Shown here: positions 41,617 through 56,070 of the stretch, in pieces
How positions within the stretch are numbered: position 1 is the stretch's first letter
How the letters are laid out: each line of letters opens with the position of its first letter
DNA from: Candidatus Fermentibacterota bacterium
GTDB taxonomy: Bacteria; Fermentibacterota; Fermentibacteria; Fermentibacterales; Fermentibacteraceae
Direction: 5' to 3'
Assembly (NCBI GenBank): GCA_012523605.1
Contig: JAAYTY010000056.1
Location: forward strand, 1 to 58,546
Length of the DNA: 58,546 nucleotides
Notes under the pieces: model-generated
The model's database searches: none
What the model was told of the DNA's origin: nothing
What the model saw: the letters and a program-made list of their open reading frames with translations, nothing else
Made by a program: the position numbers and the translations under genes

Positions 41617-44160
41617 TCAATCCTTCACTCTGACGAACATGACCGTGAAGTCGTCGGCGAAGTCGCCGCTCCCGGTGTGCGCCCTGACCCCGGCCTCCAG
41701 ACGGTCAATGAGATCCTGGAGGGGAAGGTTCCTCCCGGCGGTCACGAGAGCCTCGATCCTGTCCTCCCCGAACTCCTCTCCGGAGGGGCTCATGGCCTCG
41801 CTTACGCCGTCGGTGTAGAGAACCAGGAGGTCGCCGGGGTACAGGATCGTCGTGCCGCTCCTGTATGCGGCATCGCGCATCACCCCGAGGAGCAGACCGC
41901 CCTGTTCGAGCTTCTCCACCGCTCCGGAAGCCCGGAGGAGAATGGGGGGGTTGTGGCCGGCGTTCACCCATTCCAGCTTCCTGGAATCGGGCTCGAAGAG
42001 CGCCGTGAAGAACGTTACGAAGAACTCGTCGGGCGTGTTCTCGAACATGAGCCTGTTGACCCTGGAGACCACCGCCGGAAGCGTCAGCCCAACCTCGGTT
42101 ATCGCCCTCAGCGAGGCCTGGAGGTTCGCCGTGAGGAGCGCGGGGCCCATCCCCTTGCCGGTGACGTCGCCCAGCGAGAACATTGTCCGGCCGCCTTCGA
42201 GAGTCACCATGTCATAGAAATCGCCGGCCACTTCCAGGCAGAACGTGATGCTCGCGGCGGCTTCGAGCCCCGGAGTCTCCGGCAGCTCGAGGGGAAGGAG
42301 GCTCTTCTGTATCCCCCTGGCTATCTGGAGCTGCTCCTCCAGCTTCTCCTTCTCGACCTTCTCCCTCAGCAGCTCGAGGTTTTCGGCCGCCACGCCGATT
42401 TGTGCAGCCAGCGAGGACAGGATCTCCATCTCGGCGTGCGTGTAGTCCTCGCCGGTGGTCTTCCCTCCGGTAGCGACGAATCCCAGCAGGCCGCCGTGCC
42501 CGATGAGAGGGAGAAGCAAAGCCGTTTCACGGGCATGGAACCACCTGATCTGTTCCATGTCCAGCCCCAGCCTGCCGCTTGCGATTATCTCGTCAACCAG
42601 CATGGGGCGGGCGTACTGGGCGAGGCGCCGGGACAGTCTCGAGCCACGGCTGAACGGCGCGGGCTCTCCCCGGCAGATCTCCACGGCGTTCTCGCTCCTG
42701 GCATCGAAGATGACCGGCATGACCGACTCGGTCTCGAGGCCCTGGGAGAGCTTCTCCTCCAGGGTCAGCCAGAACTCGTCTCTGTCGCCTATGTCCCTCG
42801 TGAGCCCTATGAAGTCGCGCAGGAGGGTGCGGAGGCGCTCCCGTTCCGGATAGAACCGGTCCTCCAGCCAGTTCCTGATCTTCCGCTGGGCCGGGGCGAA
42901 CCCCACTGCAACGCCGATGGAAACCACCAGCAGAGGGGCCGGGCCCCGCGATCCGGCAACTGTGATCAGCCAGCCGCCCGCCTTGTACACCATGACGAGC
43001 AGGAGGGCGAGCAGGGAGGCGTTGACCAGCACGAAGAGAGTTCCCCTGCGAACGCGGCCCTCGACCTCCAACAGCCTGTACTTCCCGAAGGCGAACGCAA
43101 AAGAAACCGGTATCAGGAGGAGCACCAGGAATAGCCCGTCGAACACGAACAGCCTCGCGACGTACGGTACGCTGCTCCACCAGTCGCGGAAGACAGTGCC
43201 CGCCAGCATGATGAGGAAAAGTAACAAAAGGCCTGGAACCGAGCCCCACAGAACGAGGCGGACCATCCTGTGCTCGACCTTGTCGGCGGCCGCCCCGAGG
43301 GATCTGAACATCAGGATCGTGCCCAGGGTGAAGTAGGCGGTGATCACGACCTGGAGCACGGGCAACCCGTCTGAGAGCTTCGGCAGCCAGGGCAGCAGGC
43401 GGTGCGCGGCCGAGGCCGCCATGAGCATGACGAGGAGCGGGGGCGCGTAGCACAGCAGGTCGAACAGCGGGCGCCTCCGGAGATACCAGGACTTCTCGCG
43501 GGGGAAGACGAACTGGAGGTTCAGCCATAACGGGGCTGCGAGCCACGAGAGGAGGCCGACGATCTGATAGACCTCCTCCTCGAAGGGGATGTGGAACCTG
43601 GCGTAGGCGGGGGCCACGCTCAGGAACAGGAAGGTCATCATCAAGGCCAGCGAGTAGCAGAACAGCGCGAGCACCCGCACGGCGCGCGAGTCGGGCCTCT
43701 TCGCGAAGGCCCAGAGGCCGACCGTCACGAGCGATACCGCAATGAGGAACCTGAGGATGAACCCGGGCACAACGACGATGTGGAGAAGCAGAGGGATGCT
43801 GCGGGTCTCCACCCTTGTGGCGTAGAGGCTGTCGCCGTGCTTGAACTCCAGCGGGACGACGACACCCGGCGGTGTCTCAGTGGTGAAGACGGTGAAGTAG
43901 TTGTCGAGGGTTCCCGGAAGGCCCTGCAACGAGACCAGCGTGTCGCCGGGCTCGGGGTATGGAGGCTGGATGAAGTCGTCCCTGTCGACCTCGGAGAAGA
44001 CCCCGAGACTGTCCTCGTAGAGTGCGATCATGCTCCAGATGTCGCCCATGCTAACGAGCGTGTCGGCCCTGGTGTAGTCCTGAACCAGAGCCACCCCCAC
44101 AAGGAGCATCACGATGATCGTGACAAGGGTCATTCCCGCGCGGACGACGGTCTTCCTCAT
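41617..44160 (-). CDS. Multi-TM sensor with GAF-like domain and PP2C/SpoIIE phosphatase domain
   Basis: The N-terminal half has about 8 or more TM segments after an extracytoplasmic domain. The C-terminal part shows IARGIQ..LLP, AGDFYD, GDVTGKGMGPALL, NAGHNPP and LYTDGV. Confidence 0.75.
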   Translation of the reverse strand: MRKTVVRAGMTLVTIIVMLLVGVALVQDYTRADTLVSMGDIWSMIALYEDSLGVFSEVDRDDFIQPPYPEPGDTLVSLQGLPGTLDNYFTVFTTETPPGVVVPLEFKHGDSLYATRVETRSIPLLLHIVVVPGFILRFLIAVSLVTVGLWAFAKRPDSRAVRVLALFCYSLALMMTFLFLSVAPAYARFHIPFEEEVYQIVGLLSWLAAPLWLNLQFVFPREKSWYLRRRPLFDLLCYAPPLLVMLMAASAAHRLLPWLPKLSDGLPVLQVVITAYFTLGTILMFRSLGAAADKVEHRMVRLVLWGSVPGLLLLFLIMLAGTVFRDWWSSVPYVARLFVFDGLFLVLLLIPVSFAFAFGKYRLLEVEGRVRRGTLFVLVNASLLALLLVMVYKAGGWLITVAGSRGPAPLLVVSIGVAVGFAPAQRKIRNWLEDRFYPERERLRTLLRDFIGLTRDIGDRDEFWLTLEEKLSQGLETESVMPVIFDARSENAVEICRGEPAPFSRGSRLSRRLAQYARPMLVDEIIASGRLGLDMEQIRWFHARETALLLPLIGHGGLLGFVATGGKTTGEDYTHAEMEILSSLAAQIGVAAENLELLREKVEKEKLEEQLQIARGIQKSLLPLELPETPGLEAAASITFCLEVAGDFYDMVTLEGGRTMFSLGDVTGKGMGPALLTANLQASLRAITEVGLTLPAVVSRVNRLMFENTPDEFFVTFFTALFEPDSRKLEWVNAGHNPPILLRASGAVEKLEQGGLLLGVMRDAAYRSGTTILYPGDLLVLYTDGVSEAMSPSGEEFGEDRIEALVTAGRNLPLQDLIDRLEAGVRAHTGSGDFADDFTVMFVRVKD

Positions 44161-44248
44161 GAATCCTCCGCGAAATGCACACCCTCTGCGAATCTATGAA
44201 AACGCGGTCGGGAAGGCTAGAAATCCCGTCGGCTCGCAGTGCCGGAGG

Positions 44249-45337
44249 CTATCCCCGCAGGGCTTTCCCGTACACCTCCAGATACTCTTTCACCACCCGG
44301 TCGGGATCGTGGAGAGCCGCGACCCTCCTCCTCGCGGGCTCGTTCAACGCCGGACCGGCTCTGACCGCCTCGCCGAGAGCCAGGGCGAGGCTCTCCGGCG
44401 ACTCCTGCTCGAAGGGCATGCCGAGGCCGTCGGCGATCTCCCTGTTGCCGGGAATGTCACTGTAAACTACGGTCAGTTCGCACGACAGCATGTCGAGGAG
44501 GCTCATGCTCTGGGCCTCGAGCTTCGAGGGAACCACTCCGAACCGCGCTCCGCGCAGGAGATCGCCGAGATCGGGAGCCTCCAGAAGACCGGTCGTGACC
44601 ACACCCGCCTCTTTCGTCAGGGCGGCGATGCGCCTCCCGTAGCTGCCGGAGAGGAGTGGGCAGGCCACCGCCAGACGCAGGGGGATGCCGGCCAACAGCC
44701 ATGCCTCGAGAAGGGTGTGCAGGCCCTTCGAAGGCACGAGCCTCCCGGCGGCGAACACCGCATAGCTTCCCGGCTGGAGCCCGTTGTCGGCCAGCACGCG
44801 GTTTCCGCGTGTTCCCGGGTTTCTGAGGCAGTTCGGCACCAGGACGACTTTCCCGGGCGCCGATTTTTCGTAGTAGGAGACGAGATGCGCGGCAACCGCG
44901 GTCGCCCGGGCGTTCGAATGCAGGAAGCGTCTCTCGGCGAGTCTGGACATCGCCCGTCTCGCAAGGCCGGCCTCGCGGGCCAGATACGCCCTGCCGTGCG
45001 AGGTGACGACCAGCGGCAGATCCTCCTCCAGCCTGCCGGCGAACATCAGGGGATCCACGCTGTGGATGTGAACCAAATCGAAATCACCGCTTCTGCGGAC
45101 TATTCTCGAGAAAGAGCGCATGGCGTGCAGGGGCATGGCGAGCGGGCCGGAACAGGGTCCGGGCGTGCACTCGACCCTGCAGCCGCGATGGAGCGGGGCG
45201 CCGGTGGAGTAGCCCTCCCAGGCGAAGACCGTCACCTCGTGGCCCAGGGCCGCCAGGCGCGCGCCCAGCTCCTCCACCACCACTTCCACGCCGTGCCTGC
45301 CCGGCACGCCCTTCGATCCCGCCAGCGCGATCCTCAT
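44249..45337 (-). CDS. GT4-family glycosyltransferase
   Basis: Motifs seen: MRIALAGSKG (ATG at 45337), VHIHS and VVPSKLEAQSMSLLDML (an EX7E-like region). This is the last high-GC gene before the compositional break. Confidence 0.7.
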   Translation of the reverse strand: MRIALAGSKGVPGRHGVEVVVEELGARLAALGHEVTVFAWEGYSTGAPLHRGCRVECTPGPCSGPLAMPLHAMRSFSRIVRRSGDFDLVHIHSVDPLMFAGRLEEDLPLVVTSHGRAYLAREAGLARRAMSRLAERRFLHSNARATAVAAHLVSYYEKSAPGKVVLVPNCLRNPGTRGNRVLADNGLQPGSYAVFAAGRLVPSKGLHTLLEAWLLAGIPLRLAVACPLLSGSYGRRIAALTKEAGVVTTGLLEAPDLGDLLRGARFGVVPSKLEAQSMSLLDMLSCELTVVYSDIPGNREIADGLGMPFEQESPESLALALGEAVRAGPALNEPARRRVAALHDPDRVVKEYLEVYGKALRG

Positions 45338-45471
45338 GAAAGGGCTGGCTTCATTTCGGTGCATGTCATCGAGCCCATCCCGGGCCACCCTTCACGACGA
45401 GCTGTTGTCACACCCGAACGCTCTGACCCTCCTCTGCAATCCTCGAACTGCCAGGGCAGTCCGGCGGTGCG

Positions 45472-45501
45472 GTGTCGTATCCACGCAATTGAGATTATTA
45501 T
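45472..45501 (+). promoter_or_regulatory. Candidate sigma70-like promoter for the deacetylase-like gene
   Basis: GTGTCG-N18-TATTAT lies 33 nt upstream of the ATG at 45535 and overlaps the imperfect palindrome TTGAGATTATTATCAA. A similar motif occurs at 47451-47479. Confidence 0.3.
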
Positions 45502-45534
45502 CAAGCGGATTTCGAGTGTCTTCAAGGGAAAGCC

Positions 45535-46440
45535 ATGCTGAAATTTTATTATTTCTTGAGACCCTCTCTTCCGAGAAGCCTCATCCTCTTCATCCGCAGG
45601 GTCAGGGCCCGGTTCATATACTGGCGCATTCGAGGAGTCATGGTCTCGGGTGATTCAAAGAGAACTGCTGTTCTGCCATCACCTGGCAGTGCCGGTGTTT
45701 CCACTATTCTGATGACCCACGATGTCGAGAGCTCGCAAGGACTGTCACGAATCGAAGGCCTCCGCAGAATCGAGAGACAGTTCGACATTCGATCCACATG
45801 GTGTTTCGTCGTCGACAAATACGGGGATGTAGCCGATCGTGTGAAGGATCTCGTCGAGGAGGGGTGCGAGTGTGCTGCCCACGGCCTCCATCATGACGGC
45901 AGGCTTTTCTCCGATCCCAGGCTGTTCGAAGAGAGAATGGTCATCATCCATTCCTGGGCCGCCCGAATGGGCATCGTCGGTTTCAGATCGCCCTCCATGC
46001 TGAGGGACGAAGTTCTCATGCGGAGGCTTCCCTTTCTCTGGGATTCTTCCTTCCCGGCCTGGGATCCCTTCCAGCCCCAGCCTGGCGGTTGTGGCAGGTA
46101 CGAGCCGTTCCTGCTGTCTCCCGGACTCGTAGAGCTGCCGGTGACGGTATGGCAGGACTACACGATCTTCGAAGAACTCGGCTCAAGGGACATATCTCTC
46201 TGGAAATCACAGATAAGCCAGATCCACCGGGCTGGCGGGCTCATCAACATGATCGTCCACCCGGACTACATGTCGGGAGGCAGGCGTCTGGGCCTTTTCA
46301 ACGAACTGCTCGAATACCTCTCGGAACTCCCGGGAGCGGAGTTCAGACTTCCCAGGGAGCTGGCGCAGGAATTCCTGGCTCGTTCGGAAAAGGCATCAGC
46401 CGACGATGGCCATCAGGTGACCCAACACCGAGTCCCTTGA
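45535..46440 (+). CDS. Polysaccharide deacetylase-like (CE4/NodB-type) protein
   Basis: Motifs seen: ILMTHDVES, AAHGLHHD and FRSP. The N-terminus is basic and hydrophobic. The 3' end overlaps the convergent DUF354 gene by 45 nt. Confidence 0.5.
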   Translation: MLKFYYFLRPSLPRSLILFIRRVRARFIYWRIRGVMVSGDSKRTAVLPSPGSAGVSTILMTHDVESSQGLSRIEGLRRIERQFDIRSTWCFVVDKYGDVADRVKDLVEEGCECAAHGLHHDGRLFSDPRLFEERMVIIHSWAARMGIVGFRSPSMLRDEVLMRRLPFLWDSSFPAWDPFQPQPGGCGRYEPFLLSPGLVELPVTVWQDYTIFEELGSRDISLWKSQISQIHRAGGLINMIVHPDYMSGGRRLGLFNELLEYLSELPGAEFRLPRELAQEFLARSEKASADDGHQVTQHRVP

Positions 46441-47400
46441 TTCCGGGCCGATCACGGGAGGGACTCTCTTCTCCGGTTTTATCACCAGCTTGTCGAGGTC
46501 TGCAGGCTCACGGATGCCGACCAGCCTGCCCGCTGATTCCAGCGACCTGTCCACAGCACCCCATCGGCCCGAGAAGAAGCTGTATGATCGCACCCCCAGT
46601 GCGGCAGCCTCCCGGGTCATCGTTCCGCCCCCACCTATGACGAGATCCGATGACCAGACGAGATCAGGACCAGGTATGATCTGCTCGAGAACAGAGCAGG
46701 AAAGACCCGCCGATTCCATTCTTTGCTTCAGTTCCATCGACTGCCGTGCGCTTCGGGGGACCAGCCGTACATGCACATCGCCGGAAGAGGCCAGGAAGTC
46801 AATCGTACCACTCAGCAGTCTGGTGCTCTTCTCGGAATAATAGTGCGCTGTTGTTCCTTCAGGTCTCAAGAGGATGATCGCCTGCCGGGCCGGAAGGTGA
46901 TCGGGCAGTTTCCATCCATGCAGATAGATATTCTCCTTGATGCCGGGATAGTGCAGAACCTTGCTGGAGTGCCTCCCCCAGGTTATGGCAGGTATCGCCT
47001 GCGGGACTATGAGCGCATTCATGAGCGGCACGAGAGACTGATCCGAGTATTCGTAGTCGTCCAGGCAGACACAGGTGACACCCATGAGTCTGGCGGCTAT
47101 CACCTGGCTTCTTGATCCGTGACTCAGCGCAAGCGCGGGGCGAGATCCCGAAAAATGCCTGACAAGAGCTGCAGCCCTGCTGAAAGATGCAAGCGATTTT
47201 CGCAACTTGCTCCGTGTTGCGGGTGAACCCCCGATTTCCACAACAGGCAATCCGAGCATTCTGCAAACCTGGATGGTGATGGAGAACCTGCGAGCTGTGA
47301 AGACGATCTCGAATCCCTTGACGACCAGTGAATCGGCGAGCGGTTTCATGACCCATGCCTGAGGGGCATTCTCGATGTCGATCCAAACGGTCCTTCTGAT
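46396..47400 (-). CDS. DUF354 family protein (GT-B-like, uncharacterised glycan enzyme)
   Basis: VWIDIENAPQAWVMKPLADSLVVKGFEIVFTAR matches the conserved DUF354 N-terminus, but most of it lies upstream of the first canonical start (ATG 47349). A perfect AGGAGG sits 7 nt before an in-frame ATC at 47400, and an in-frame stop lies at 47425-47427. The conservative coordinates are 46396-47349. Confidence 0.6.
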   Translation of the reverse strand: MRRTVWIDIENAPQAWVMKPLADSLVVKGFEIVFTARRFSITIQVCRMLGLPVVEIGGSPATRSKLRKSLASFSRAAALVRHFSGSRPALALSHGSRSQVIAARLMGVTCVCLDDYEYSDQSLVPLMNALIVPQAIPAITWGRHSSKVLHYPGIKENIYLHGWKLPDHLPARQAIILLRPEGTTAHYYSEKSTRLLSGTIDFLASSGDVHVRLVPRSARQSMELKQRMESAGLSCSVLEQIIPGPDLVWSSDLVIGGGGTMTREAAALGVRSYSFFSGRWGAVDRSLESAGRLVGIREPADLDKLVIKPEKRVPPVIGPESRDSVLGHLMAIVG

Positions 47401-47450
47401 GCGTGATCCTCCTGCAGTCAGTGCCTATTTCTGGAAACATCGCTGGATCG

Positions 47451-47479
47451 GTGTCATAAGTCGAATATGCCTGTATATT
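47451..47479 (+). promoter_or_regulatory. Candidate sigma70-like promoter for the ATP-grasp/PSD-like operon
   Basis: GTGTCA-N17-TATATT lies 31 nt upstream of the TTG start at 47511. Confidence 0.3.
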
Positions 47480-47510
47480 CAAGTTCTGGAGAGAGAACCG
47501 GGAGGGCCGG

Positions 47511-48701
47511 TTGGTCCGTTTCAACCATTCCAGAGGAGTGCTGGTTCTAGGCATCGAGAGCCAGGGGCTTGCAATCCTCAGATCTCTCGGAAGGGCCGGG
47601 ATCAGCACGGTTCTCCTCGACCAAGACTCATGGGGGGTAGCCCGCTTCTCCAGATACGGTTCACCATTCTTCAGAACCCCCCGATACAGCGATCATCGGG
47701 CATTTGCCGATTTCCTCCTCGAGGTTGCCGACAGACTGGGCCTCGAGCACGGCGGTTGGACCCTGTTCCCCACTGATGACGACCAGGTCGAGGCGATTTC
47801 CAGGTTCGGCGAAAAGCTGAGCGAGGTATTCAAGATACGGGTCCCGTGCTGGGAGGTAGTATCGAGAGTGCTGAGGAAAAACCTCTTCTACACCACTGCC
47901 GACGAGCTGGGGATCCCACACCCCAGGAGCTGGTTCCCCATAGGGGAATTGAACCCGTCGGACCTCGAATACCCGGTGATCATCAAGCCTGTGACGAAGA
48001 CAAGGTTCGGCCCGGAGTTCAGGGTGAAGGCGATCAAGATTTCAGGACCCGAAGATCTGGAAAGGACTATCGACCACCTTGCGAGCAGGGTCCCTATCGA
48101 TGACATGCTCGTCCAGGAATTCGTTCCCGGCCGGGGTGACTGCCAGATGTCCTTCGCATCCATTCGCACGCTGGACGGGCGGACAGCGGGCTTCACTGCG
48201 GTGAGGAAAAGACAGCATCCTCCTGAATTCGGCAAGGCGAGCACATACGTGAAGGCAGAAGCGATCCCGGAGATCATCGAGTACTCTCAGCGCCTCCTCT
48301 CTCACCTGGACTATCATGGCGTGTCCGAAATCGAGTTCAAGAGAGATTCCGGAACCGGGGTCGTCAAGATGCTCGAGATGAACGCCAGATTCTGGGGATG
48401 GCACTCCATCGGCTCCAGGTGCGGGCTTGATCTCCCCCGGCTCTTGTTCGATGATATCTTCGGAAGTTCGGATGTCATGCCGGGGATGAGGGATTGTTCT
48501 GCTCAATGGGTGAAGATCCCTACGGATCTTCCGATTGCGCTGGGTGAAATCGTTGCAGGCAGAACCTCTTTCATCGATACTTTGAGGTTGTACCTGGGGA
48601 TCGGCAACGTCGAGAATGCGACATTCAGTCCTGAAGACCCTTTTCCCTTCTTCGCGGAGATAGCTCTGATCCCGTACCTGATGGCCAGGAGAGGTTATTA
48701 A
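47511..48701 (+). CDS. ATP-grasp enzyme (carboxylate-amine ligase type, COG3919-like)
   Basis: The TTG start follows GGGAGG with a 4-nt spacer. Motifs seen: VLVLG......A..RSLGRAGI, YPVIIKP, VQEFVPG and GVSEIEFKRD...G.VKMLEMNARFW. Confidence 0.7.
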   Translation: MVRFNHSRGVLVLGIESQGLAILRSLGRAGISTVLLDQDSWGVARFSRYGSPFFRTPRYSDHRAFADFLLEVADRLGLEHGGWTLFPTDDDQVEAISRFGEKLSEVFKIRVPCWEVVSRVLRKNLFYTTADELGIPHPRSWFPIGELNPSDLEYPVIIKPVTKTRFGPEFRVKAIKISGPEDLERTIDHLASRVPIDDMLVQEFVPGRGDCQMSFASIRTLDGRTAGFTAVRKRQHPPEFGKASTYVKAEAIPEIIEYSQRLLSHLDYHGVSEIEFKRDSGTGVVKMLEMNARFWGWHSIGSRCGLDLPRLLFDDIFGSSDVMPGMRDCSAQWVKIPTDLPIALGEIVAGRTSFIDTLRLYLGIGNVENATFSPEDPFPFFAEIALIPYLMARRGY

Positions 48702-49538
48702 ATGTTCGATGGATTGCTTTTTGAACTCATTCTATCGGTCGTTGCAGCACATCTCGTGATGGTGCCACTGGGTATCAAGTGGCAGTTCAGGCCCCTCCAG
48801 ATCGTCGCGAGGGCTCTTTTCATGTCGATGATCTGCCTCGTTGCATTGATGCTGCTACCGGACGAATGGGGCCTTTGGATCAGATTCGCAGCGGGGGTCT
48901 GCCTGGCGATTCTGCAGATTCCCCTTGTTATCCTGCCTTTCCTCTATGCCGATCCGGAAAGGGCCGTGAAGATCGCCGAGGATATCGTGCTATCCCCGGC
49001 TGACGGCAGGATCATATACGTGAAGAAGTCCACGAAGGGCGTTCTACCTCTGGGTGAAAAGCGGGGAGAAACCTTCGAGCTCAGAGAGCTTCTCGGCATC
49101 TCTGGATTTGACGATGACTGCATACTCGTCGGGATCACCATGAACTTCCTCGATGTCCATGTGAACAGGGCGCCGGTTACGGGGGTTCTCACCAGAATCA
49201 CTGATGCAGGCGACAGCTATCTTTCCCTCAGGAAGCCTCTCGCCGTCATCCGGAATTCCAGGAGGACATCGATCTTCGAATCAGGCAATTGCTCCGTGGC
49301 TGTTGTCCAGATCGCGTCCAGGATGGTCAGGCGAATAGTTGGGTTCCACAAGGAGGGAACACGTATCGGCCAGGGCGATAGATTCGGAATGATCAGGCTG
49401 GGCTCTCAAGTTGATGTCGCAGTTCCCGGCAGTCAGGTCGAGGATGTCCTGGTGAGCAAGGGGGATCTGGTTGTGGCCGGCGTCACCCCGTTGATGAGGC
49501 TTGCAGGAATCCACCGGAATGACCGAGGGACTGAATGA
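48702..49538 (+). CDS. Phosphatidylserine-decarboxylase-family (pyruvoyl-dependent) protein with N-terminal TM segments
   Basis: Motifs seen: LSPADGRI, FLDVHVNRAPVTG and G.RFGMIRLGSQVD (the self-cleavage G-S site). The ATG directly abuts the ATP-grasp TAA stop, and AGGAGAGG lies upstream. Confidence 0.65.
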   Translation: MFDGLLFELILSVVAAHLVMVPLGIKWQFRPLQIVARALFMSMICLVALMLLPDEWGLWIRFAAGVCLAILQIPLVILPFLYADPERAVKIAEDIVLSPADGRIIYVKKSTKGVLPLGEKRGETFELRELLGISGFDDDCILVGITMNFLDVHVNRAPVTGVLTRITDAGDSYLSLRKPLAVIRNSRRTSIFESGNCSVAVVQIASRMVRRIVGFHKEGTRIGQGDRFGMIRLGSQVDVAVPGSQVEDVLVSKGDLVVAGVTPLMRLAGIHRNDRGTE

Positions 49539-49542
49539 CTTC

Positions 49543-50622
49543 TCAAGCACTGCCTCCCCGCTTGTTCGCCAGCACTTCCGAGTAGGTTTCCAGCAGCCTG
49601 GATACGGTGGTTCTGAGAGACCACTTCTCGAGAGCCATTTCCCTTCCATTGCTTCGGTTCCGACCCCGCAGGATATCTGCAGCTGCTTCTGCGAGGATAT
49701 CCGGATCAGGAGGGAAAACGCCACCCGGGCTTATACCATCGAGCTGATCCTCTACATCTCCTACAGGTGTGCTCACGACAGGCAAGTTGCAGAAGTTCGC
49801 TTCTTTCACGATGGTCGGTGACGCTTCTGTCCGCGAGGTCAGGATGACAAGGTCAACCGCGTTCAGCAGAACCGGGACTTCTTCATGCCTGTAACCGCGG
49901 AAGATCACCTCTTCGACATCTACACCGAGAGCTCCCAGCCTGTCCAGGATGCTCCTGAACAGGGGATACCCCTTTTCGAGCCTTTCGGTGCTCTCCCCGG
50001 CGAAAAGAACCTTGAGGGAGTCCTTCCCCCAACCGAGCTCCGAGCAGGCCGCCGCCCTGTCCAACGGGACGAACAATCCCTCATCAGGACCGATAGGGAT
50101 GCACTTCCTGACCCTGCCTCGCACGTGCCGCAGATCGTGCGGATTCACGACTATCGTCGCGTCTGCCAGCCTCGAAGCTATCCTCGCCAGAAGCGAGTCC
50201 TTGAAGTACAGGAGCCTTTCTCCGAGCCCCCGGGGCACCCTGGGCTCGTAGTCCCGGTACCCGAACTCCCCGTGGATATGGAGAACCAGCGGCAGCCTCG
50301 CGGCCAGCGCACATACGATTCCGGCGTGCGCATACTGCGCATGAACCAGGTCGTACTTCCGGCTCGACAACAACCTGGTCAGCCGTGTCACAGCCGTCAG
50401 ATAGGATGTGCGCCTCCCGGCTCCACCTTCCGGTCTGATCAGGAAGACATCGTGCCGGCCGCGGGCTTTTCCCAGACCCCTTACCATTGCCTGCACGAAG
50501 GCGCCGCTCGCTGGCCTGTCTGCAGTCGGCCACATGGCCGTCACATGAAGAACCCGCGGAGTATCCCCGGTAGCGGTATCGATGCTCACTTCGTCAGTCC
50601 CTGCATCGCAATGCATCAGCAC
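49543..50622 (-). CDS. GT4-family glycosyltransferase
   Basis: Motifs seen: VLHVTAMWP, LVHAQYAH and ILTSRTEASPTIVKEANFCNLPVVSTPVGD. The start is either GTG 50622 or ATG 50616. The gene converges on the PSD-like gene with only a 4-nt gap. Confidence 0.7.
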   Translation of the reverse strand: MLMHCDAGTDEVSIDTATGDTPRVLHVTAMWPTADRPASGAFVQAMVRGLGKARGRHDVFLIRPEGGAGRRTSYLTAVTRLTRLLSSRKYDLVHAQYAHAGIVCALAARLPLVLHIHGEFGYRDYEPRVPRGLGERLLYFKDSLLARIASRLADATIVVNPHDLRHVRGRVRKCIPIGPDEGLFVPLDRAAACSELGWGKDSLKVLFAGESTERLEKGYPLFRSILDRLGALGVDVEEVIFRGYRHEEVPVLLNAVDLVILTSRTEASPTIVKEANFCNLPVVSTPVGDVEDQLDGISPGGVFPPDPDILAEAAADILRGRNRSNGREMALEKWSLRTTVSRLLETYSEVLANKRGGSA

Positions 50623-50658
50623 GTCCGCATTCCGGTGGAAGATCTCCCGTCAGCCCGG

Positions 50659-51216
50659 TCAGCGGATGTCAATTGCCCCGGCCTCCGTGGAGGGGCTGTC
50701 TGTCAGTCGGTTCCTGATGACTCTCGCCGGCACCCCTCCGACCACGCAGAAGTCGGGGACATCCCTGTTGACCAGCGAAAGCGCTCCCACTATCGCCCCC
50801 TCGCCGATCCGCAACCCCGGCATGATGACAGCCCGCAACCCTATCCAGGCGCCGTTCGCCACCACAGTGGCGGGATGATCCTGCTCTCCCTGGAGTGCAA
50901 CTGGAGTGTGCGGGTCCGAACAGCGGTGGGTTCTCGCGATGAAGTAGACTTCGGGCGCGATGAGAACGTTCTCGCCTATCTCGACGTTCGCAAGATGCGC
51001 TCCTTCGTTGATGTGCGAGTTCGATCCGATCCTGACGTTCTCTCCACGCCCGATATAGACTCCCTGATTGAACCTGACGTTGCTTCCCATCGCGGGAAGA
51101 ATCCGTGAGATAACGAAGCATCTCAGCCGGTTGAACAGCTTTCCTCCGGGGAAGAAATACCCGGGGAGCCTGCATGCAAAGATGTAGTAGACGATCAGCC
51201 AGAAGGACCTTATCAT
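50659..51216 (-). CDS. Left-handed beta-helix O-acetyltransferase (WcaF/maltose-acetyltransferase-like)
   Basis: The ATG at 51216 follows GGGAGAG. Hexapeptide repeats are present (IGENVLIAPEV, NGAWIGLRAVIMPGLRIGEGAIVGALSLV). Confidence 0.7.
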   Translation of the reverse strand: MIRSFWLIVYYIFACRLPGYFFPGGKLFNRLRCFVISRILPAMGSNVRFNQGVYIGRGENVRIGSNSHINEGAHLANVEIGENVLIAPEVYFIARTHRCSDPHTPVALQGEQDHPATVVANGAWIGLRAVIMPGLRIGEGAIVGALSLVNRDVPDFCVVGGVPARVIRNRLTDSPSTEAGAIDIR

Positions 51217-51304
51217 CCGGGACTCTCCCTTCCCGAAGCAGTCAATGATTCCCTGGGCTTCATGAGCAGTATGGCCTCCTGTCACGGGATCAGATCTATG
51301 CGGA

Positions 51305-52555
51305 TCATAGCACTCTGTTCTGCATTGCGATGAGCCGGGAGAGGCTTGTCTCGATCGCGGAGTCAATCGGGATCCTTCCACCGAGCAGGGCTTCGACGGA
51401 GCGTCTTTCCGAGTATTCGATGACTTCATGCTCCCGGAGAAGGCTCAGGAGAGCTTCCCCGATCCTGTTCACTGCGGGGCCGTCGGACCTGCCGAGGTAC
51501 TTGCGCCTCATGCCCCGTGCAGCTGTGAACATCCATGCGGCGGGGCCGGGATCGAGCCTGGGGCTGTAACCTCTGTCCGTTGCGAAATCCAGCAGGTCCG
51601 GGCACAGTCTGGACAGGATGTTCCGATAGAGCCTCCGACTCAGCATGGTATTCTGCAGATTGTTCTTCAGCCCTCTCCTGTCGCTCAGCCGGAACCTGCT
51701 GCAAAGGCATGCCTCGACGAAATCCCCGGCAAGAAACGGAAGCTTCACGAAACCCGGGCGGCAGATGCTTGAGGCGAGGTTGCAGAACAAGCCGGGATAA
51801 GCGAACAGCGCCAGCCAGGAAACCCCCTTCTGTTCACCTGAGGTTCCCGGCAACCCCGAGAGAGCTGTCTCCAGGCTGGCCAGGTAGCCGTCGTCGAAGA
51901 CTGCAGGATCGAAGAGACATGGAACCTCGATGGGCACGCGTGGGCGCAGACCCAGGACTCCTGCCACATACTGCGGCATCGCTTCGGACGGAAGGGAGGG
52001 TGGCCTGATGATCTCTCCCTCTCCCCAGAACAGGATGTCCGCTTCTTCGGCGGTTCTTGCCAGCGAAGCAACGATGTGGCTCTTTTCGAGCCTTGGAATC
52101 CTGTCGCCGGATGCAAGCATCTCTCTCATTGTCTGCAATATCTCGACACTGGTCAACGAAGCCGGGTCTATGATGCGATGTCGAAGACCGAAGTGCCTCG
52201 CCATGGCGGCTACCAGCTGCTCCTCGCGGGTTGGATTGGGGATGGTCCACGTGAAGAGAACCGGGCGCAGCCCCTGTTCGAGAAGTGCTGCAAGAAGAAG
52301 CCTGGAATCGTAGCCGGCCGACATCAGAAGACCCACTCGAGAAGCACGTTCTGTCAGCGTGCAGACGGTCTTCCCCAGCACATCCGCAATGTGGGACTCA
52401 TCCGGCCACGGGCGAGTTCCGAAGGCCGATTCCAGGCCGGGCCTGGCTGACAGAGCCAGTGGAAGCACCGGCTCGTGGGAGCAGTCAGCACCATCGAACG
52501 CTCCACCGCGGGGCAGAAACCCGAGATGCGCTAACCAGGCCGGCCGGTATTGCAC
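51305..52555 (-). CDS. Asparagine-synthetase-like PP-loop adenylating domain protein (no glutaminase domain)
   Basis: It has a PP-loop-type SGGxDS variant (LLMSAGYDSRLL). At 416 aa it has no N-terminal Cys/Ntn domain. It has a GTG start. Confidence 0.5.
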   Translation of the reverse strand: MQYRPAWLAHLGFLPRGGAFDGADCSHEPVLPLALSARPGLESAFGTRPWPDESHIADVLGKTVCTLTERASRVGLLMSAGYDSRLLLAALLEQGLRPVLFTWTIPNPTREEQLVAAMARHFGLRHRIIDPASLTSVEILQTMREMLASGDRIPRLEKSHIVASLARTAEEADILFWGEGEIIRPPSLPSEAMPQYVAGVLGLRPRVPIEVPCLFDPAVFDDGYLASLETALSGLPGTSGEQKGVSWLALFAYPGLFCNLASSICRPGFVKLPFLAGDFVEACLCSRFRLSDRRGLKNNLQNTMLSRRLYRNILSRLCPDLLDFATDRGYSPRLDPGPAAWMFTAARGMRRKYLGRSDGPAVNRIGEALLSLLREHEVIEYSERRSVEALLGGRIPIDSAIETSLSRLIAMQNRVL

Positions 52556-52558
52556 GAA

Positions 52559-53833
52559 TCAGTCCCCTGTTCCCGACAGAGAGGGGAATCCCGCGCCCGG
52601 CTTCCCTGTTCCGGAATCGGTCAGGGCTTCGTAGAGCTTGAACATGGTTTCAGACCAGCGCTCGATCGAGAAGGAATCGAGAATCCGGTTGCGGCCTGCC
52701 CCGCGCGCCCTCGCCCTCCACTCGGGCAGGCTGCCGAGCATCGATTCGATGGCCTCCGAATACGCTTCCGGGGTGGGATCGACGGCACAGACCCCGTGCT
52801 CCGGGCCGAACAGCCTGGACAGCGCTCCCGTGTTGGCACCGACAAGGGGGACGCCCATGGCGAGGCTCTCGTAAACCGAGTTGTTGACGGATTCGCCGCA
52901 CCACGGTTCCCAGGAAACGAGCGTGAGGTCCGCCGTAGCAAAAAGGCGCTCGATGTCCAGCCTGGTTCCGAGGAAGATCGTCCTGCAGTTTCCGATTCCA
53001 CTCGCCAGGTTTTCGATTCTCCCCCTTTCTTCGCCTTCGCCGATGTAGATGAAGCAGATGTGCCTTTCAGTCCTCTCTGCAACGAGCCTCTGCGCATTCA
53101 CAATCAGATCGAAATCGACAGCCTTGCGGAAATTCCTGGGGTGGATGATCACGATATCATCCGGTCGTAGCGAGAGCTCTTCCCTCATGCCGGCGACGAC
53201 CTCCGGCTCGAACTGTTTCGTGTCTATCCCGTTATGGATGCAGAGCAGGCGATCCTTCCCTGCTATTCCGAGCTCTGCCAGTTTATCCCTGATCAGTATG
53301 GAGTTGGCTACATGGGCTGATACTGCTTGCCTGTCCAGGAACCTGTACCAGGCCCCTCCCAGAATGGCCTTGAGGGCGTTAGGCCTGGCTGGACCGCCCC
53401 TCCAGTGGGCGACGATCGAGATATCCGGGTACCTGAGAATCTTGAGAATCGAGGCCATCCAGAGGTGCGAAGCCCCGAAGTGAGTATGGACCAGATTTAT
53501 CCGATGCTTCGCCATCACCCTGTCGATCCGGCGTATCTCCCTCAGTCCGAAGGGATAGCCCTCTGAGGGAACGATCTCCACCCGGCATCCTTCGTCTTCG
53601 AAGACCTTGGCCCACCATTTCCTCTCGGGCAGAACGAGTGTCATTTCGTTTCCTGATCCGACCAGCCTGCTTCCCAGGGATAGCAGACTGGAACCGAAAC
53701 TCCCGAGGTGCTCCGGCGAGAACTCGGCCATCTCGAGAGCTCTGATTCCAGCTTCTTTCACAGGACCACTCTTATCGAATAAGTCAGGCCGGACCTCACC
53801 GGAATCCCTGGATTCATCCCTGGCATTTTCCAT
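52559..53833 (-). CDS. GT4-family glycosyltransferase
   Basis: Motifs seen: LVHTHF, IHNGIDT and WEPWCGESVNNSVYESLAMGVPLV. The start is uncertain, with an alternative ATG at 53731. Confidence 0.65.
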   Translation of the reverse strand: MENARDESRDSGEVRPDLFDKSGPVKEAGIRALEMAEFSPEHLGSFGSSLLSLGSRLVGSGNEMTLVLPERKWWAKVFEDEGCRVEIVPSEGYPFGLREIRRIDRVMAKHRINLVHTHFGASHLWMASILKILRYPDISIVAHWRGGPARPNALKAILGGAWYRFLDRQAVSAHVANSILIRDKLAELGIAGKDRLLCIHNGIDTKQFEPEVVAGMREELSLRPDDIVIIHPRNFRKAVDFDLIVNAQRLVAERTERHICFIYIGEGEERGRIENLASGIGNCRTIFLGTRLDIERLFATADLTLVSWEPWCGESVNNSVYESLAMGVPLVGANTGALSRLFGPEHGVCAVDPTPEAYSEAIESMLGSLPEWRARARGAGRNRILDSFSIERWSETMFKLYEALTDSGTGKPGAGFPSLSGTGD

Positions 53834-54917
53834 CCCGGCAGTCGTTGCACAAAAGACCCATATAGAGATCGCTCAGCTTCGCGGTCATCACTTCGGGCGA
53901 GTATTCCGCTGCTCTAGACAAGGCCTTGACTGACATCTCGTGACGGAAGCCTCGATCCATCAGGCGTCTCAGACAACCTGCCGCGGATTCCGGCGAACCG
54001 GGATCGAAGAGCAGGCCATATTGCCCGTTTCCGATAAGTTCCCTGAGTGCGGGAATGTCCGAGAGGACGACAGGCAGTCCGACAGCCATCGCTTCGGCTG
54101 CAGCAATGCCGAAGGTTTCCGAGAGACTTGCCAGCGCGAAGGCATCGTAGTTCTTCAGCAGCCCAGGAACATCGTCTATCGTGCCCAGGATTCTCACCCT
54201 GTCTTCCAGGCGGGTCTCGTTGATGATCTTGACCAATGAATCCCTGAAACGCGGGTGGCCGTCTCCAACCAGATCGAGAGTCACATCCAGTCCCTCGCTC
54301 ACAAGTATTCCCACGGCCCTCACCAGTGTTTTCTGGTCCTTCAGCATGTCGAGCCGGCCCACGCACACCAAAGCAAGTCTCCCGGTGTTCCCGAGACCCG
54401 GCATGCTGTACGGCTCCGGTCTCTCGAAGGAGGCATCGTAGCTGTTCGGAACCGATACCATCCTGCGGGCCGGGTAACCCGATCTCTCGAGATCCATGCG
54501 ATGTGATTCGGAAACCGCTACTATCCTGTCGAATCTGGCGAGGACCCACTTGTGCACCGCAAGATGCCACCCCGTCTCATGCCCGTGGACGGTGGCCACC
54601 AGCTTCACTCCCGTCGCTTTGGAAGCCAGGTAGGCGTGAAATGCATCTACCACTCCATTGCAGTGAACTATTTCGATCTTCTTATCCTCTATGTAACGGT
54701 GCAGCCTCTTCACCGCCGGCATCGAGAACGAGGCTTTTCTGCCCAGTAGAATGCTATCCGATGCAAGGGCGGCAGCCCTGTCTGCCAACCTGCCTGGTTT
54801 CCCGAGAATGCAGAGACAGGCATCAACACGGGATCCTTTGAACTGGCCGAGCAATGTGACCAGGAGCCGCTCCTTGCCGCCGACATCGAGTGAGTCATCC
54901 ATGAAAAGCACTCTCAT
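53814..54917 (-). CDS. GT4-family glycosyltransferase
   Basis: The start is the ATG at 54917 (MRVLFMDDSLDVGGKERL), which overlaps the upstream stop (ATGA). Motifs seen: VHCNG and LASLSETFGIAAAEAMAVGLPVV. Confidence 0.75.
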   Translation of the reverse strand: MRVLFMDDSLDVGGKERLLVTLLGQFKGSRVDACLCILGKPGRLADRAAALASDSILLGRKASFSMPAVKRLHRYIEDKKIEIVHCNGVVDAFHAYLASKATGVKLVATVHGHETGWHLAVHKWVLARFDRIVAVSESHRMDLERSGYPARRMVSVPNSYDASFERPEPYSMPGLGNTGRLALVCVGRLDMLKDQKTLVRAVGILVSEGLDVTLDLVGDGHPRFRDSLVKIINETRLEDRVRILGTIDDVPGLLKNYDAFALASLSETFGIAAAEAMAVGLPVVLSDIPALRELIGNGQYGLLFDPGSPESAAGCLRRLMDRGFRHEMSVKALSRAAEYSPEVMTAKLSDLYMGLLCNDCRDGKCQG

Positions 54918-56068
54918 CGCGATATGTGCTCCAGGCTGATTCCTGCAACCGAGAGACTCTTCAGGAGAGTCGCGAACCTGCTTCCCCATTCCGCGCCGGC
55001 AACCGACAGGCTGAGCGCTCTGCTTTCTTCTGAGGTGAACTCGATGGCGTGTTCGAGCGCCTGCTCGAGTGTGAATTCCGGAGCGTAGAGGACGGCTGCG
55101 GCAAGGGGATCCTGCCGGAGACTGTCGAGCCCCGTCGCATAGACAGGCCTCCCGCATGCAAGATACTCGTACACCTTCAACGGGCTGACGCTCGCGGAAA
55201 CCTTGCTGGAAACGAACGGAGCGAGGCAAAGTGAGAAACGCTTCATGTACGCAGGAAGGGCCGCATGGGGACGATGACCGAGCTGACGACCTCCGCGGGC
55301 GACAACACTTTCCACCCGGCTCGTGCAATCCGGGTCGGTTTTTCCGATAAGCAGAAGCTCGCCGTTTCTTTCTCTGGCCAGCTCGGCAGCCCGGGCTAGG
55401 AGCTCGAAATCGACGTGCTTGAAAAGTGTCCCCGCGAAACCTATTACAGGACCTGTGACGAAGGGCCAATCCGCAGGAGGTGAAGCGTCATCGGTATTGA
55501 AAAGGAGGGAGTCGAAACCATTCGGAATCACGGAATGGCATCTGGTTCGGGCTCCGTACTTGCCCTCCAGCACCGGTGAAGTGAATACACAGAGGTCTGC
55601 ATTGCCGAGCAGCCATTCGGTTCCTGGTCGAAGCCTGCGACCGCCGTACTCCGGCAGTATGTAATCGTCCACCATGTCGAACACGATGTTATCGGGCTCG
55701 AGAAAACGAACAGCATCGGAGTACCGGGGATCGTAGATCCATAGAGTCCCCACTGTCAGGCCCAGATCATCCAGTGCATGTCTTATCTGGCGCGACCATG
55801 ACGAATGGTCGATCAGGCTGGGCAGTCTGCCGTGCCTGAACGGGAGCGCCATCGTGGGCGTTAGAACGGTAAGCCCCGGCTTGACTCTCCTTGTTCGAGG
55901 CTTGAAGACAGGGCTGAGTCGATCGGATGAAAGCAGCTTGTTCCACGATTGCGACGGTTCTACGAAAAGCACGGGTACGCCCCTGTCGGCGAAGCGGGTC
56001 ATGAAGTGCTGCCTTCTGGACGAGAATCCGTCCCAGAACCCGCCTATGCAGACGATTGCCTTCTGCAT
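54914..56068 (-). CDS. GT-B glycosyltransferase (TuaH-like)
   Basis: Motifs seen: MQKAIVCIGGFWDG..SRRQH, VIPNGFD and SPLKVYEYLACGRPV. The start is either ATG 56068 or TTG 56083. Confidence 0.6.
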   Translation of the reverse strand: MQKAIVCIGGFWDGFSSRRQHFMTRFADRGVPVLFVEPSQSWNKLLSSDRLSPVFKPRTRRVKPGLTVLTPTMALPFRHGRLPSLIDHSSWSRQIRHALDDLGLTVGTLWIYDPRYSDAVRFLEPDNIVFDMVDDYILPEYGGRRLRPGTEWLLGNADLCVFTSPVLEGKYGARTRCHSVIPNGFDSLLFNTDDASPPADWPFVTGPVIGFAGTLFKHVDFELLARAAELARERNGELLLIGKTDPDCTSRVESVVARGGRQLGHRPHAALPAYMKRFSLCLAPFVSSKVSASVSPLKVYEYLACGRPVYATGLDSLRQDPLAAAVLYAPEFTLEQALEHAIEFTSEESRALSLSVAGAEWGSRFATLLKSLSVAGISLEHISR

Positions 56069-56070
56069 CT

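Follow-up and report, generated by a model that had tools for sequence, protein, structure and literature searches.

What does a member of the phosphatidylserine decarboxylase (PSD) family do among glycosyltransferase genes, away from pssA, its usual partner in phospholipid synthesis? The question is raised by a contig of 58,546 nucleotides from Candidatus Fermentibacterota bacterium (GCA_012523605.1, JAAYTY010000056.1), analysed here as a whole and called the window, from a 2.39-Mb genome that is 95% complete and has a guanine-cytosine (GC) content of ~65%. GC content drops from ~0.65 to 0.56-0.61 from ~45.4 kb through the contig end, the stretch occupied by a polysaccharide locus, and within it the TAA of an ATP-grasp ligase gene (48699-48701; product P0002) abuts the ATG of a PSD-like gene (48702-48704; product P0001). 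A sequence-only reading of this DNA had listed these genes in a glycosyltransferase island lacking pssA, and had proposed that the pair is a glycan-locus unit distinct from Psd/PssA phospholipid synthesis. Its genes, coordinates and the abutment were confirmed in the sequence, and the absence of pssA from the island was borne out by an empty search for the CDP-alcohol phosphatidyltransferase motif across the full 58.5-kb window. We describe the pair as part of a conserved trio, together with a deacetylase-like gene (product P0122), in which known enzyme families form a new functional variant and for which we propose a chemistry from its predicted enzymes.

To place the pair in a wider context, 84 loci encoding relatives of P0001 were collected. 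In 41 of them the PSD-like gene has a homolog of P0002 as its direct neighbour, mostly immediately upstream on the same strand with a gap of 4-16 bp, and no real pssA motif was found near the pair in any of these 41 loci. Locus L016 had seemed to combine an ATP-grasp gene with a CDP-alcohol motif, and was rejected as an exception since the motif match was a false one spanning a stop codon. A further 26 loci have a CDP-alcohol transferase gene 150-250 bp downstream of the PSD gene and no ATP-grasp gene; four of these transferases were checked, and all four reach the pssA cut-off. The PSDs of these four loci pass NCBIfam PSD cut-offs (210 bits for L066 and 247 bits for L074), whereas three ATP-grasp-linked PSD-like proteins fail the cut-off of 183 with scores of 141.6, 163.7 and 161.7. 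In a maximum-likelihood tree, a single branch parts 40 ATP-grasp-linked from 26 pssA-linked sequences, with an SH-aLRT support of 97 initially and 98.3 with one row corrected.

The carriers belong to at least 11 named phyla (Latescibacterota, Acidobacteriota, Actinomycetota, Chloroflexota, Bacteroidota, Omnitrophota, Cloacimonadota, Kiritimatiellota, Lentisphaerota, Pseudomonadota and Zhuqueibacterota), and the two genes are fused both as PSD::ATP-grasp (L015:6001-8022, 673 aa) and, in the opposite order, as ATP-grasp::PSD (P0199). Of five other carrier genomes, four encode a second, short PSD in addition. The adjacency of the two genes is thus conserved over many loci and phyla and reinforced by fusions in both orders, and P0001 lies across the supported branch from the pssA-linked PSDs, so the glycan-locus unit postulated from the window alone stands. 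Our literature search, whose coverage left out most subscription journals, found no paper linking a PSD-family enzyme with an ATP-grasp enzyme in a glycan locus. A search with a Flavobacteriaceae homolog for a cultured carrier of known glycan structure returned nearly all metagenomic matches, and no glycan structure could be tied to the module.

P0001 matches PF02666 at 109.7 bits (cut-off 22) over residues 83-262 and carries the motifs by which it was first recognised, VLSPADGRI, FLDVHVNRAP and IRLGSQ. D101 (PADG), H153 (DVHVNR) and G234-S235 (LGS) are invariant in 16 homologs, and in an alignment with E. coli Psd the catalytic residues fall on D90, H144 and the proenzyme region. When compared with the PSD equivalogs NCBIfam NF003677-NF003685 and TIGR00164, P0001 fell below every cut-off, the best being NF003685 (141.6 vs 183). 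It shares family membership and the D/H/S self-processing and pyruvoyl motifs with the short-type Psd/Asd of psd-pssA operons (PF02666; TIGR00164; NF003678/NF003685), and both are membrane-associated; the short-type substrate has as its head an alpha-amino acid with a free amine, which we propose for P0001 as well.

The clade of P0001 differs from the short-type enzymes in several respects. It is never beside pssA and always beside or fused with an ATP-grasp gene; it has ~60 additional N-terminal residues with three hydrophobic helices; and it contains a segment of ~20 residues (113-132), with Lys120 invariant, that can likewise be aligned to E. coli Psd and is missing from the pssA-linked short PSDs. 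Tyr106, Ser175/Leu176, Ser206/Arg207 and Val209 further set the clade apart from the pssA-linked proteins, as does Gln236, which replaces Arg right after the pyruvoyl serine (GS-Q vs GS-R). The residues around that serine, Q236 and S206/R207 among them, would fit an altered substrate pocket, and the clade scores under the PSD equivalog cut-offs. In P0001 itself, three hydrophobic peaks lie within residues 1-82, and the basic residues in the first loop of these N-terminal helices suggest by the positive-inside rule that the catalytic domain is cytoplasmic.

P0001 is the only PF02666 protein of its genome. The sequence-only reading had named a sole psd gene with pssA elsewhere in the genome as the mark of a housekeeping enzyme; the first half of that picture held, but pssA was not found in the 95%-complete genome, in which four CDP-alcohol transferases score at most 31 bits against the pssA cut-off of 107 (PLD-type PssA was not searched for), and the lineage is mostly without PSD. 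The four transferases are pgsA, a PIP-synthase-like protein and two unassigned proteins. In this genome (G000), two CDP-alcohol phosphatidyltransferase-family genes, on contigs C85 (15045-15629) and C171 (16616-17572), have no NCBIfam equivalog match above cut-off.

Among species genomes of the phylum, PF02666 occurs in 14 of 70, and in none of the eight other genomes of the same family, while the ATP-grasp family of P0002 is missing from all 69 other sampled genomes of the phylum. In 13 sister-family genomes (G018, G021, G032, G039, G041, G052-G057, G061 and G065) PF02666 is found in open frames 364-472 aa long, and the ATP-grasp family is absent. These genes are a different, longer PSD-family architecture, and the phylum is otherwise mostly without PSD. 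A genome of the same genus, G012, shares the left flank of the locus, including a SpoIIE-type phosphatase at 83% identity and the first GT4 gene; beyond this flank it has different glycan genes, normal GC content and a DUF354 homolog, and the deacetylase-like, ATP-grasp and PSD-like genes are absent. In an uncultured close relative (L010/L011) the entire locus is present with its gene order unchanged, the two proteins being 62% and 74% identical. Because the lineage is mostly without PSD and the rest of the sample is without the ATP-grasp family, and G012 has other glycan genes behind the same flank, we regard the module as an accessory part of a variable glycan locus that was probably transferred. 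The region as a whole is probably a strain-variable surface-polysaccharide locus acquired horizontally.

The partner of P0001, P0002, yielded a predicted model of a three-domain ATP-grasp fold (pLDDT 92.7), which matched many ATP-grasp enzymes in Foldseek at E 4e-19 to 1e-16; searching the sequence against solved structures gave only E > 0.1. The nearest solved folds, at 13-18% identity, are an L-amino-acid ligase (BL00235, 3vot), PylC (4ffl), the uncharacterised CPS-like 2pn1 and biotin carboxylases. PylC and BL00235 (Foldseek E ~1e-18 to 1e-19, TM 0.57-0.64) each couple an amino-acid carboxylate with an amine, and PylC uses a lysine side-chain amine, the alpha-amino acid head staying free. 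With identity this low, and with biotin carboxylases and PurK/PurT scoring nearly as high, the fold match shows the superfamily of P0002 and not its substrate. P0002 is a predicted carboxylate-amine (or carboxylate-alcohol) ligase. A match to Pfam ATPgrasp_Ter (PF15632; 29.9 bits, cut-off 29.1) was discarded as an informative assignment, since this model fires in 13 of 14 control genomes, and the TupA-like ATP-grasp family is absent from the Pfam matches of P0002 at E <= 0.01. Complex prediction for P0002 with the soluble part of P0001 gave a score of 0.00, which speaks neither for nor against binding.

The third member, P0122, had been called deacetylase-like, correctly as judged by the CE4 fold of its model and its NodB-like motifs. 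It has no Pfam match at E <= 0.01, including Polysacc_deac_1 (PF01522), and no NCBIfam match; phmmer returned a weak match to the H. pylori deacetylase HP0310 (3qbu, E 2.5e-4). The AlphaFold model (pLDDT 78) is a deformed (beta/alpha) barrel whose nearest folds are 3rxz (Foldseek E 2.6e-10), 3qbu (6.5e-10), PuuE, ArnD and the NDST1 deacetylase domain. Motifs HDVE, HGxxHD, GFRSP and HPDY are invariant or nearly so among 13 homologs, with D63, H116, H120 and R151 invariant and H242 nearly invariant; in our reading of the alignment these would be the NodB motif positions, including the Asp and His-His metal site. P0122 therefore appears to share with CE4/NodB deacetylases such as ArnD (8t0j) and HP0310 the fold and the His/Asp at NodB motif positions, and differs from them in lacking a Polysacc_deac_1 match and in its identity of 11-17% to solved structures. 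ArnD acts on an undecaprenyl-phosphate-linked amino sugar.

Homologs of P0122 occur in 18 of the 41 ATP-grasp-linked loci. Thirteen further loci contain a family of 250-300 aa, X4, which shows the same motif pattern, is deacetylase-like by Atlas feature search and is homologous to the P0122 family by profile comparison (probability 94.6%). Thus 31 of the 41 loci have a deacetylase-like gene no more than 6 kb from the pair, and seven of the ten loci without one end at a contig edge. The core of the module is therefore the trio of deacetylase, ligase and decarboxylase.

What this trio might do is constrained by the mechanism of its decarboxylase. Pyruvoyl decarboxylases hold their substrate by a Schiff base with its free alpha-amine, and in phosphatidylserine the serine is tethered via its side chain. 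An N-linked seryl or aspartyl amide cannot be a substrate, because its alpha-amine is not free for the Schiff base. The sequence-only reading had Ser or Asp linked through the alpha-amine and decarboxylated in situ, which conflicts with the pyruvoyl mechanism, the catalytic residues of P0001 being those of an ordinary PSD. Two orders are left for the amino acid: tethering by its side chain with decarboxylation then following on the glycan, or decarboxylation ahead of ligation. We lean, by a little, towards the former, in which the trio tethers an amino acid by its side chain, probably to a de-N-acetylated lipid-linked sugar, and then decarboxylates it at the alpha position, as a portable tailoring module. 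On-glycan decarboxylation is favoured by the membrane anchor of the decarboxylase, as expected of an enzyme with lipid-bound substrates, by the deacetylase as the most constant third partner and by the fusions.

In the proposed pathway, the enzymes would act on the cytoplasmic side of the membrane, on a sugar intermediate bound to a lipid. The deacetylase would first expose the amine of a lipid-linked amino sugar, and the ATP-grasp enzyme would then use ATP to tether an amino acid via its side chain, leaving the alpha-amino acid head free; in the most economical version the omega-carboxyl of Asp or Glu would be joined to the sugar amine. Finally, the PSD-like enzyme would strip the alpha-carboxyl and leave an amine-ended arm, for example an amide of the beta-alanyl or 4-aminobutyryl type. 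As variants, a uronic acid might be the acceptor, joined to Lys or Orn via the amine of the side chain or to Ser as an ester. The flavin N-monooxygenase-like genes near some pairs, the formyltransferase gene in locus L013 and possibly the acetyltransferase of the window are neighbours predicted to act on primary amines, which would fit an amine-ended product. In reaction logic alone, this scheme resembles the ATP-grasp D-aspartate ligase (Aslfm/AslA) of peptidoglycan cross-bridges, which couples Asp by its beta-carboxyl with a side-chain amine, after which the AsnB-type AsnH amidates the alpha-carboxyl: the side chain provides the tether and the alpha-carboxyl is neutralised, by amidation there and by decarboxylation in our proposal. 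The Asl/AsnH acceptor differs in being a peptidoglycan precursor, and no decarboxylase takes part; AsnB genes accompany the module pair in 12 of 41 loci.

Several points weigh against this scheme. The order of steps, the substrates and the product are what we infer, and the genomic data leave the order unconstrained. Indicators of uronic acids occur near the pair, namely UDP-sugar dehydrogenase and full-length AsnB genes (the latter in 12 loci) and, in the window, genes for a PP-loop protein and a heparinase II/III-like protein, so the ligase could instead activate a sugar carboxylate. The identities of amino acid and acceptor are guesses, the activities of all three proteins are predicted, and self-cleavage of P0001 to the pyruvoyl form is assumed from its conserved motifs. 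In addition, BLAST clustering found no deacetylase-like gene in three loci with full 6-kb flanks (L014, L026 and L041).

The alternative that survives best, although we consider it rather improbable, is that decarboxylation comes first: the PSD-like enzyme would make a small amine out of an amino acid that is free or phosphorylated, for example ethanolamine phosphate from O-phosphoserine, with which the ATP-grasp enzyme would amidate the carboxylate of a uronic acid. This order also meets the requirement for a free amine, and the uronic-acid indicators (UGDH, AsnB and heparinase II/III-like genes), present in several loci including the window, speak for it, as does a metallophosphatase gene directly downstream of the PSD-like gene in L012. 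It has a precedent in Campylobacter jejuni, to which the sequence-only reading had likened the pair and where the decarboxylase supplying the glucuronamide amine is dependent on pyridoxal phosphate. In the HS:2 capsule pathway, the TupA-like ATP-grasp domain of Cj1438 (C-terminal) amidates glucuronic acid with ethanolamine phosphate or serinol phosphate during chain assembly, followed by the phosphatase Cj1435 (PMC11800379). As the closest pathway in logic the analogy held up, since an ATP-grasp enzyme there adds an amino-acid-derived amine decoration to a sugar with the help of decarboxylation or amination, as proposed for the module; it did not extend to the enzyme, because the Campylobacter ligase is TupA-like and fused to a GT2 (PMC11800379), and that of the module is PylC/L-amino-acid-ligase/CPS-like. 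The HS:2 amine is moreover a soluble phosphorylated molecule, whereas the module has a membrane pyruvoyl enzyme and a deacetylase as third partner. A soluble substrate would leave the conserved three-helix anchor without a reason, and this order would not account for the deacetylase-like gene that accompanies the pair in 31 of 41 loci; P0002 has no TupA-like match in Pfam, and a phosphatase is not a regular neighbour of the pair.

Less probable still is lipid head-group chemistry, in which the GT4 and DUF354 proteins would build a glycolipid and the trio would give it an amine-bearing head as a stand-in for phosphatidylethanolamine. A genome with no other PSD and no recognisable pssA might need such a lipid, the decarboxylase is membrane-anchored, and GT4 and DUF354 genes flank the pair. 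However, all eight other genomes of the family, and the same-genus genome, do without the module, so it is not the membrane solution of this lineage; Wzy, Wzx, Wzc and Bac_transf genes for polymer export and assembly are found in the loci, and in most other carriers a normal PSD is present too. We give very little credence to the scheme in which Ser or Asp is linked by its alpha-amine to a sugar carboxylate and converted in place to an ethanolamine- or beta-alanine-type amide: the pairing and glycan context are as described for it, and amino-acid amides of uronic acids do occur in bacterial polysaccharides, but the alpha-amine of an N-acyl amino acid is blocked, and the ordinary PSD residues give no sign of another mechanism. 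That P0001 is an ordinary housekeeping phosphatidylserine or archaetidylserine decarboxylase, placed in a glycan island by chance, is scarcely credible: membership of PF02666, intact catalytic motifs and its status as the sole such gene of the genome agree with it, but it falls under all the NCBIfam PSD cut-offs that pssA-linked PSDs pass, lies on the opposite side of a branch supported at 98 in a genome where no pssA was found, and has relatives fused to ATP-grasp elsewhere, while close relatives of the organism have no PSD.

The composition of the surrounding loci was examined by clustering all open reading frames (ORFs) of the 41 ATP-grasp-linked loci. Around the pair were GT4 glycosyltransferases, Bac_transf, Wzx, Wzc, Wzy, UDP-sugar dehydrogenases, DegT and GFO proteins. 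Two layouts were recognised, one of Bacteroidota type (AsnB-GT4-ATP-grasp-PSD-DUF354-deacetylase) and one of Actinomycetota/Acidobacteriota type (deacetylase, flavin N-monooxygenase-like, ATP-grasp, PSD and second ATP-grasp), and the locus of the window combines elements of both (Table 1). DUF354 homologs adjoin the pair in 18 of 41 loci; homologs of the GT4 gene next to the PSD-like gene of the window (49543-50622) occur in nine, mostly immediately upstream of the ATP-grasp gene in Bacteroidota. Many loci of Actinomycetota and Acidobacteriota (L015:4810-8022, L019, L021, L027, L035 and L038) have a second ATP-grasp paralog by the pair, often with a Lys/Orn N-monooxygenase-like flavoprotein, which suggests that these versions ligate twice or modify the amine further.

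Table 1. Genes of the glycan locus in the window, from its left edge to the contig end.
Feature	Position	Strand	Basis
GT4 glycosyltransferase, left edge of glycan locus	44249-45388	-	Pfam Glyco_trans_4_4 77.6 bits, Glyco_transf_4 76.1 bits
Divergent CE4/NodB-type deacetylase-like protein P0122, 301 aa	45535-46440	+	Predicted fold, motifs
DUF354 protein	46396-47349, probably from ATC at 47400	-	PF04007
ATP-grasp ligase P0002 (predicted), 396 aa, TTG start	47511-48701	+	Pfam, predicted fold
PSD-family pyruvoyl decarboxylase-like protein P0001, 278 aa	48702-49538	+	PF02666
GT4 glycosyltransferase (GT4a cluster)	49543-50622	-	Pfam Glyco_trans_1_4, Glyco_transf_4
Left-handed beta-helix (hexapeptide) acetyltransferase	50659-51429 (start probably near 51216)	-	Pfam Hexapep 48.8 bits
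PP-loop AsnB-like protein without glutaminase domain, P0124	51305-52555	-	PF00733 20.2 bits
GT4 glycosyltransferase	52559-53833	-	Pfam Glyco_transf_4, Glycos_transf_1
GT4 glycosyltransferase (ORF start probably too far upstream)	53814-55469	-	NCBIfam EpsE-like 132 bits, below cut-off
Group 1 glycosyltransferase	54914-56083	-	Pfam Glyco_trans_1_4 37.1 bits
Heparinase II/III-like protein	56071-57819	-	Pfam Hepar_II_III_N 58.4 bits, Hepar_II_III_C 63.2 bits
Wzy-like polymerase gene, cut by contig end	57935-58546	-	BLAST cluster with 486-aa L010 gene (weak Wzy_C match)

A second amidation by the AsnB-like protein P0124 had also been suggested. P0124 falls just short of PF00733 (cut-off 21) with a match at residues 56-169 and far short of TIGR01536 (15.7 vs 267). 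It has a PP-loop-like motif, SAGYDS, and neither a GATase match nor an N-terminal Ntn domain or N-terminal Cys; an Atlas feature search led to clusters of asparagine-synthase-domain proteins of ~400-450 aa. Among the related loci its homologs occur only in L010/L011 and in none of the 44 others. As judged from its sequence, P0124 is a PP-loop relative only, not a glutamine-hydrolysing asparagine synthase B, and is private to this lineage.

The start codons of three genes required attention. For the DUF354 gene, a conserved N-terminus, RRTVWIDIENAPQ, is encoded upstream of the first ATG (47349-47431, minus strand), where an in-frame ATC (47400-47398) lies 6 nt past GGAGGA and an in-frame TAG stands just upstream. 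The match to PF04007 (cut-off 22) scores 55.5 bits when read from the ATG at 47349, and starting at the ATC (47400) raises it to 71.6 bits. The conserved upstream N-terminus, the spacing to GGAGGA and the gain in score together make it likely that the gene uses this non-canonical ATC start. The longest ORF of the acetyltransferase overlaps its upstream neighbour by 125 nt and its L010 ortholog has 185 aa; the overlap and the shorter ortholog place its start probably further downstream than 51429. Its top NCBIfam matches are the sugar O-acetyltransferases LacA, WcaF and WbbJ, every one below cut-off. Similarly, the longest ORF of the GT4 gene at 53814-55469 overlaps its upstream neighbour by ~550 nt and the L010 ortholog has 373 aa, on which grounds its start probably also lies further downstream.

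At the left edge of the locus, the first GT4 gene has a syntenic copy in L010 and in G012. On the opposite strand, a 475-aa ORF (44114-45541, plus strand) was rejected as a gene and is almost certainly spurious: it is rich in Arg, Gly and Pro, has no family match and runs antisense to this GT4 gene. A GAF-SpoIIE (PP2C-type) phosphatase gene (847 aa, 41617-44160, minus strand) is located between the glycan island and an NAD-dependent epimerase gene; it is syntenic in L010 and the same-genus genome and forms the conserved boundary of the variable locus.

It is in our view an evenly poised question whether a second, as yet undescribed role beyond lipid synthesis exists for the pyruvoyl enzymes of the PSD family, in which they would join with a CE4-type deacetylase and an ATP-grasp ligase to install an amine-ended decarboxylated amino-acid arm on lipid-linked sugars and thereby a positive charge on the surface polysaccharides of more than 10 phyla. 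If so, PSD relatives would have a non-phospholipid class of substrates, many uncultured bacteria would bear a polysaccharide decoration that has not yet been looked for, and loss of the decarboxylase should give a carboxylated intermediate heavier by 44 Da. The automatic label 'phosphatidylserine decarboxylase' wrongly implies phosphatidylethanolamine synthesis here, and would mislead metabolic reconstructions in a lineage otherwise without the pathway. Amine-bearing (zwitterionic or cationic) polysaccharides influence adhesion, phage recognition and immune responses, which would give a portable module for making them a general interest.

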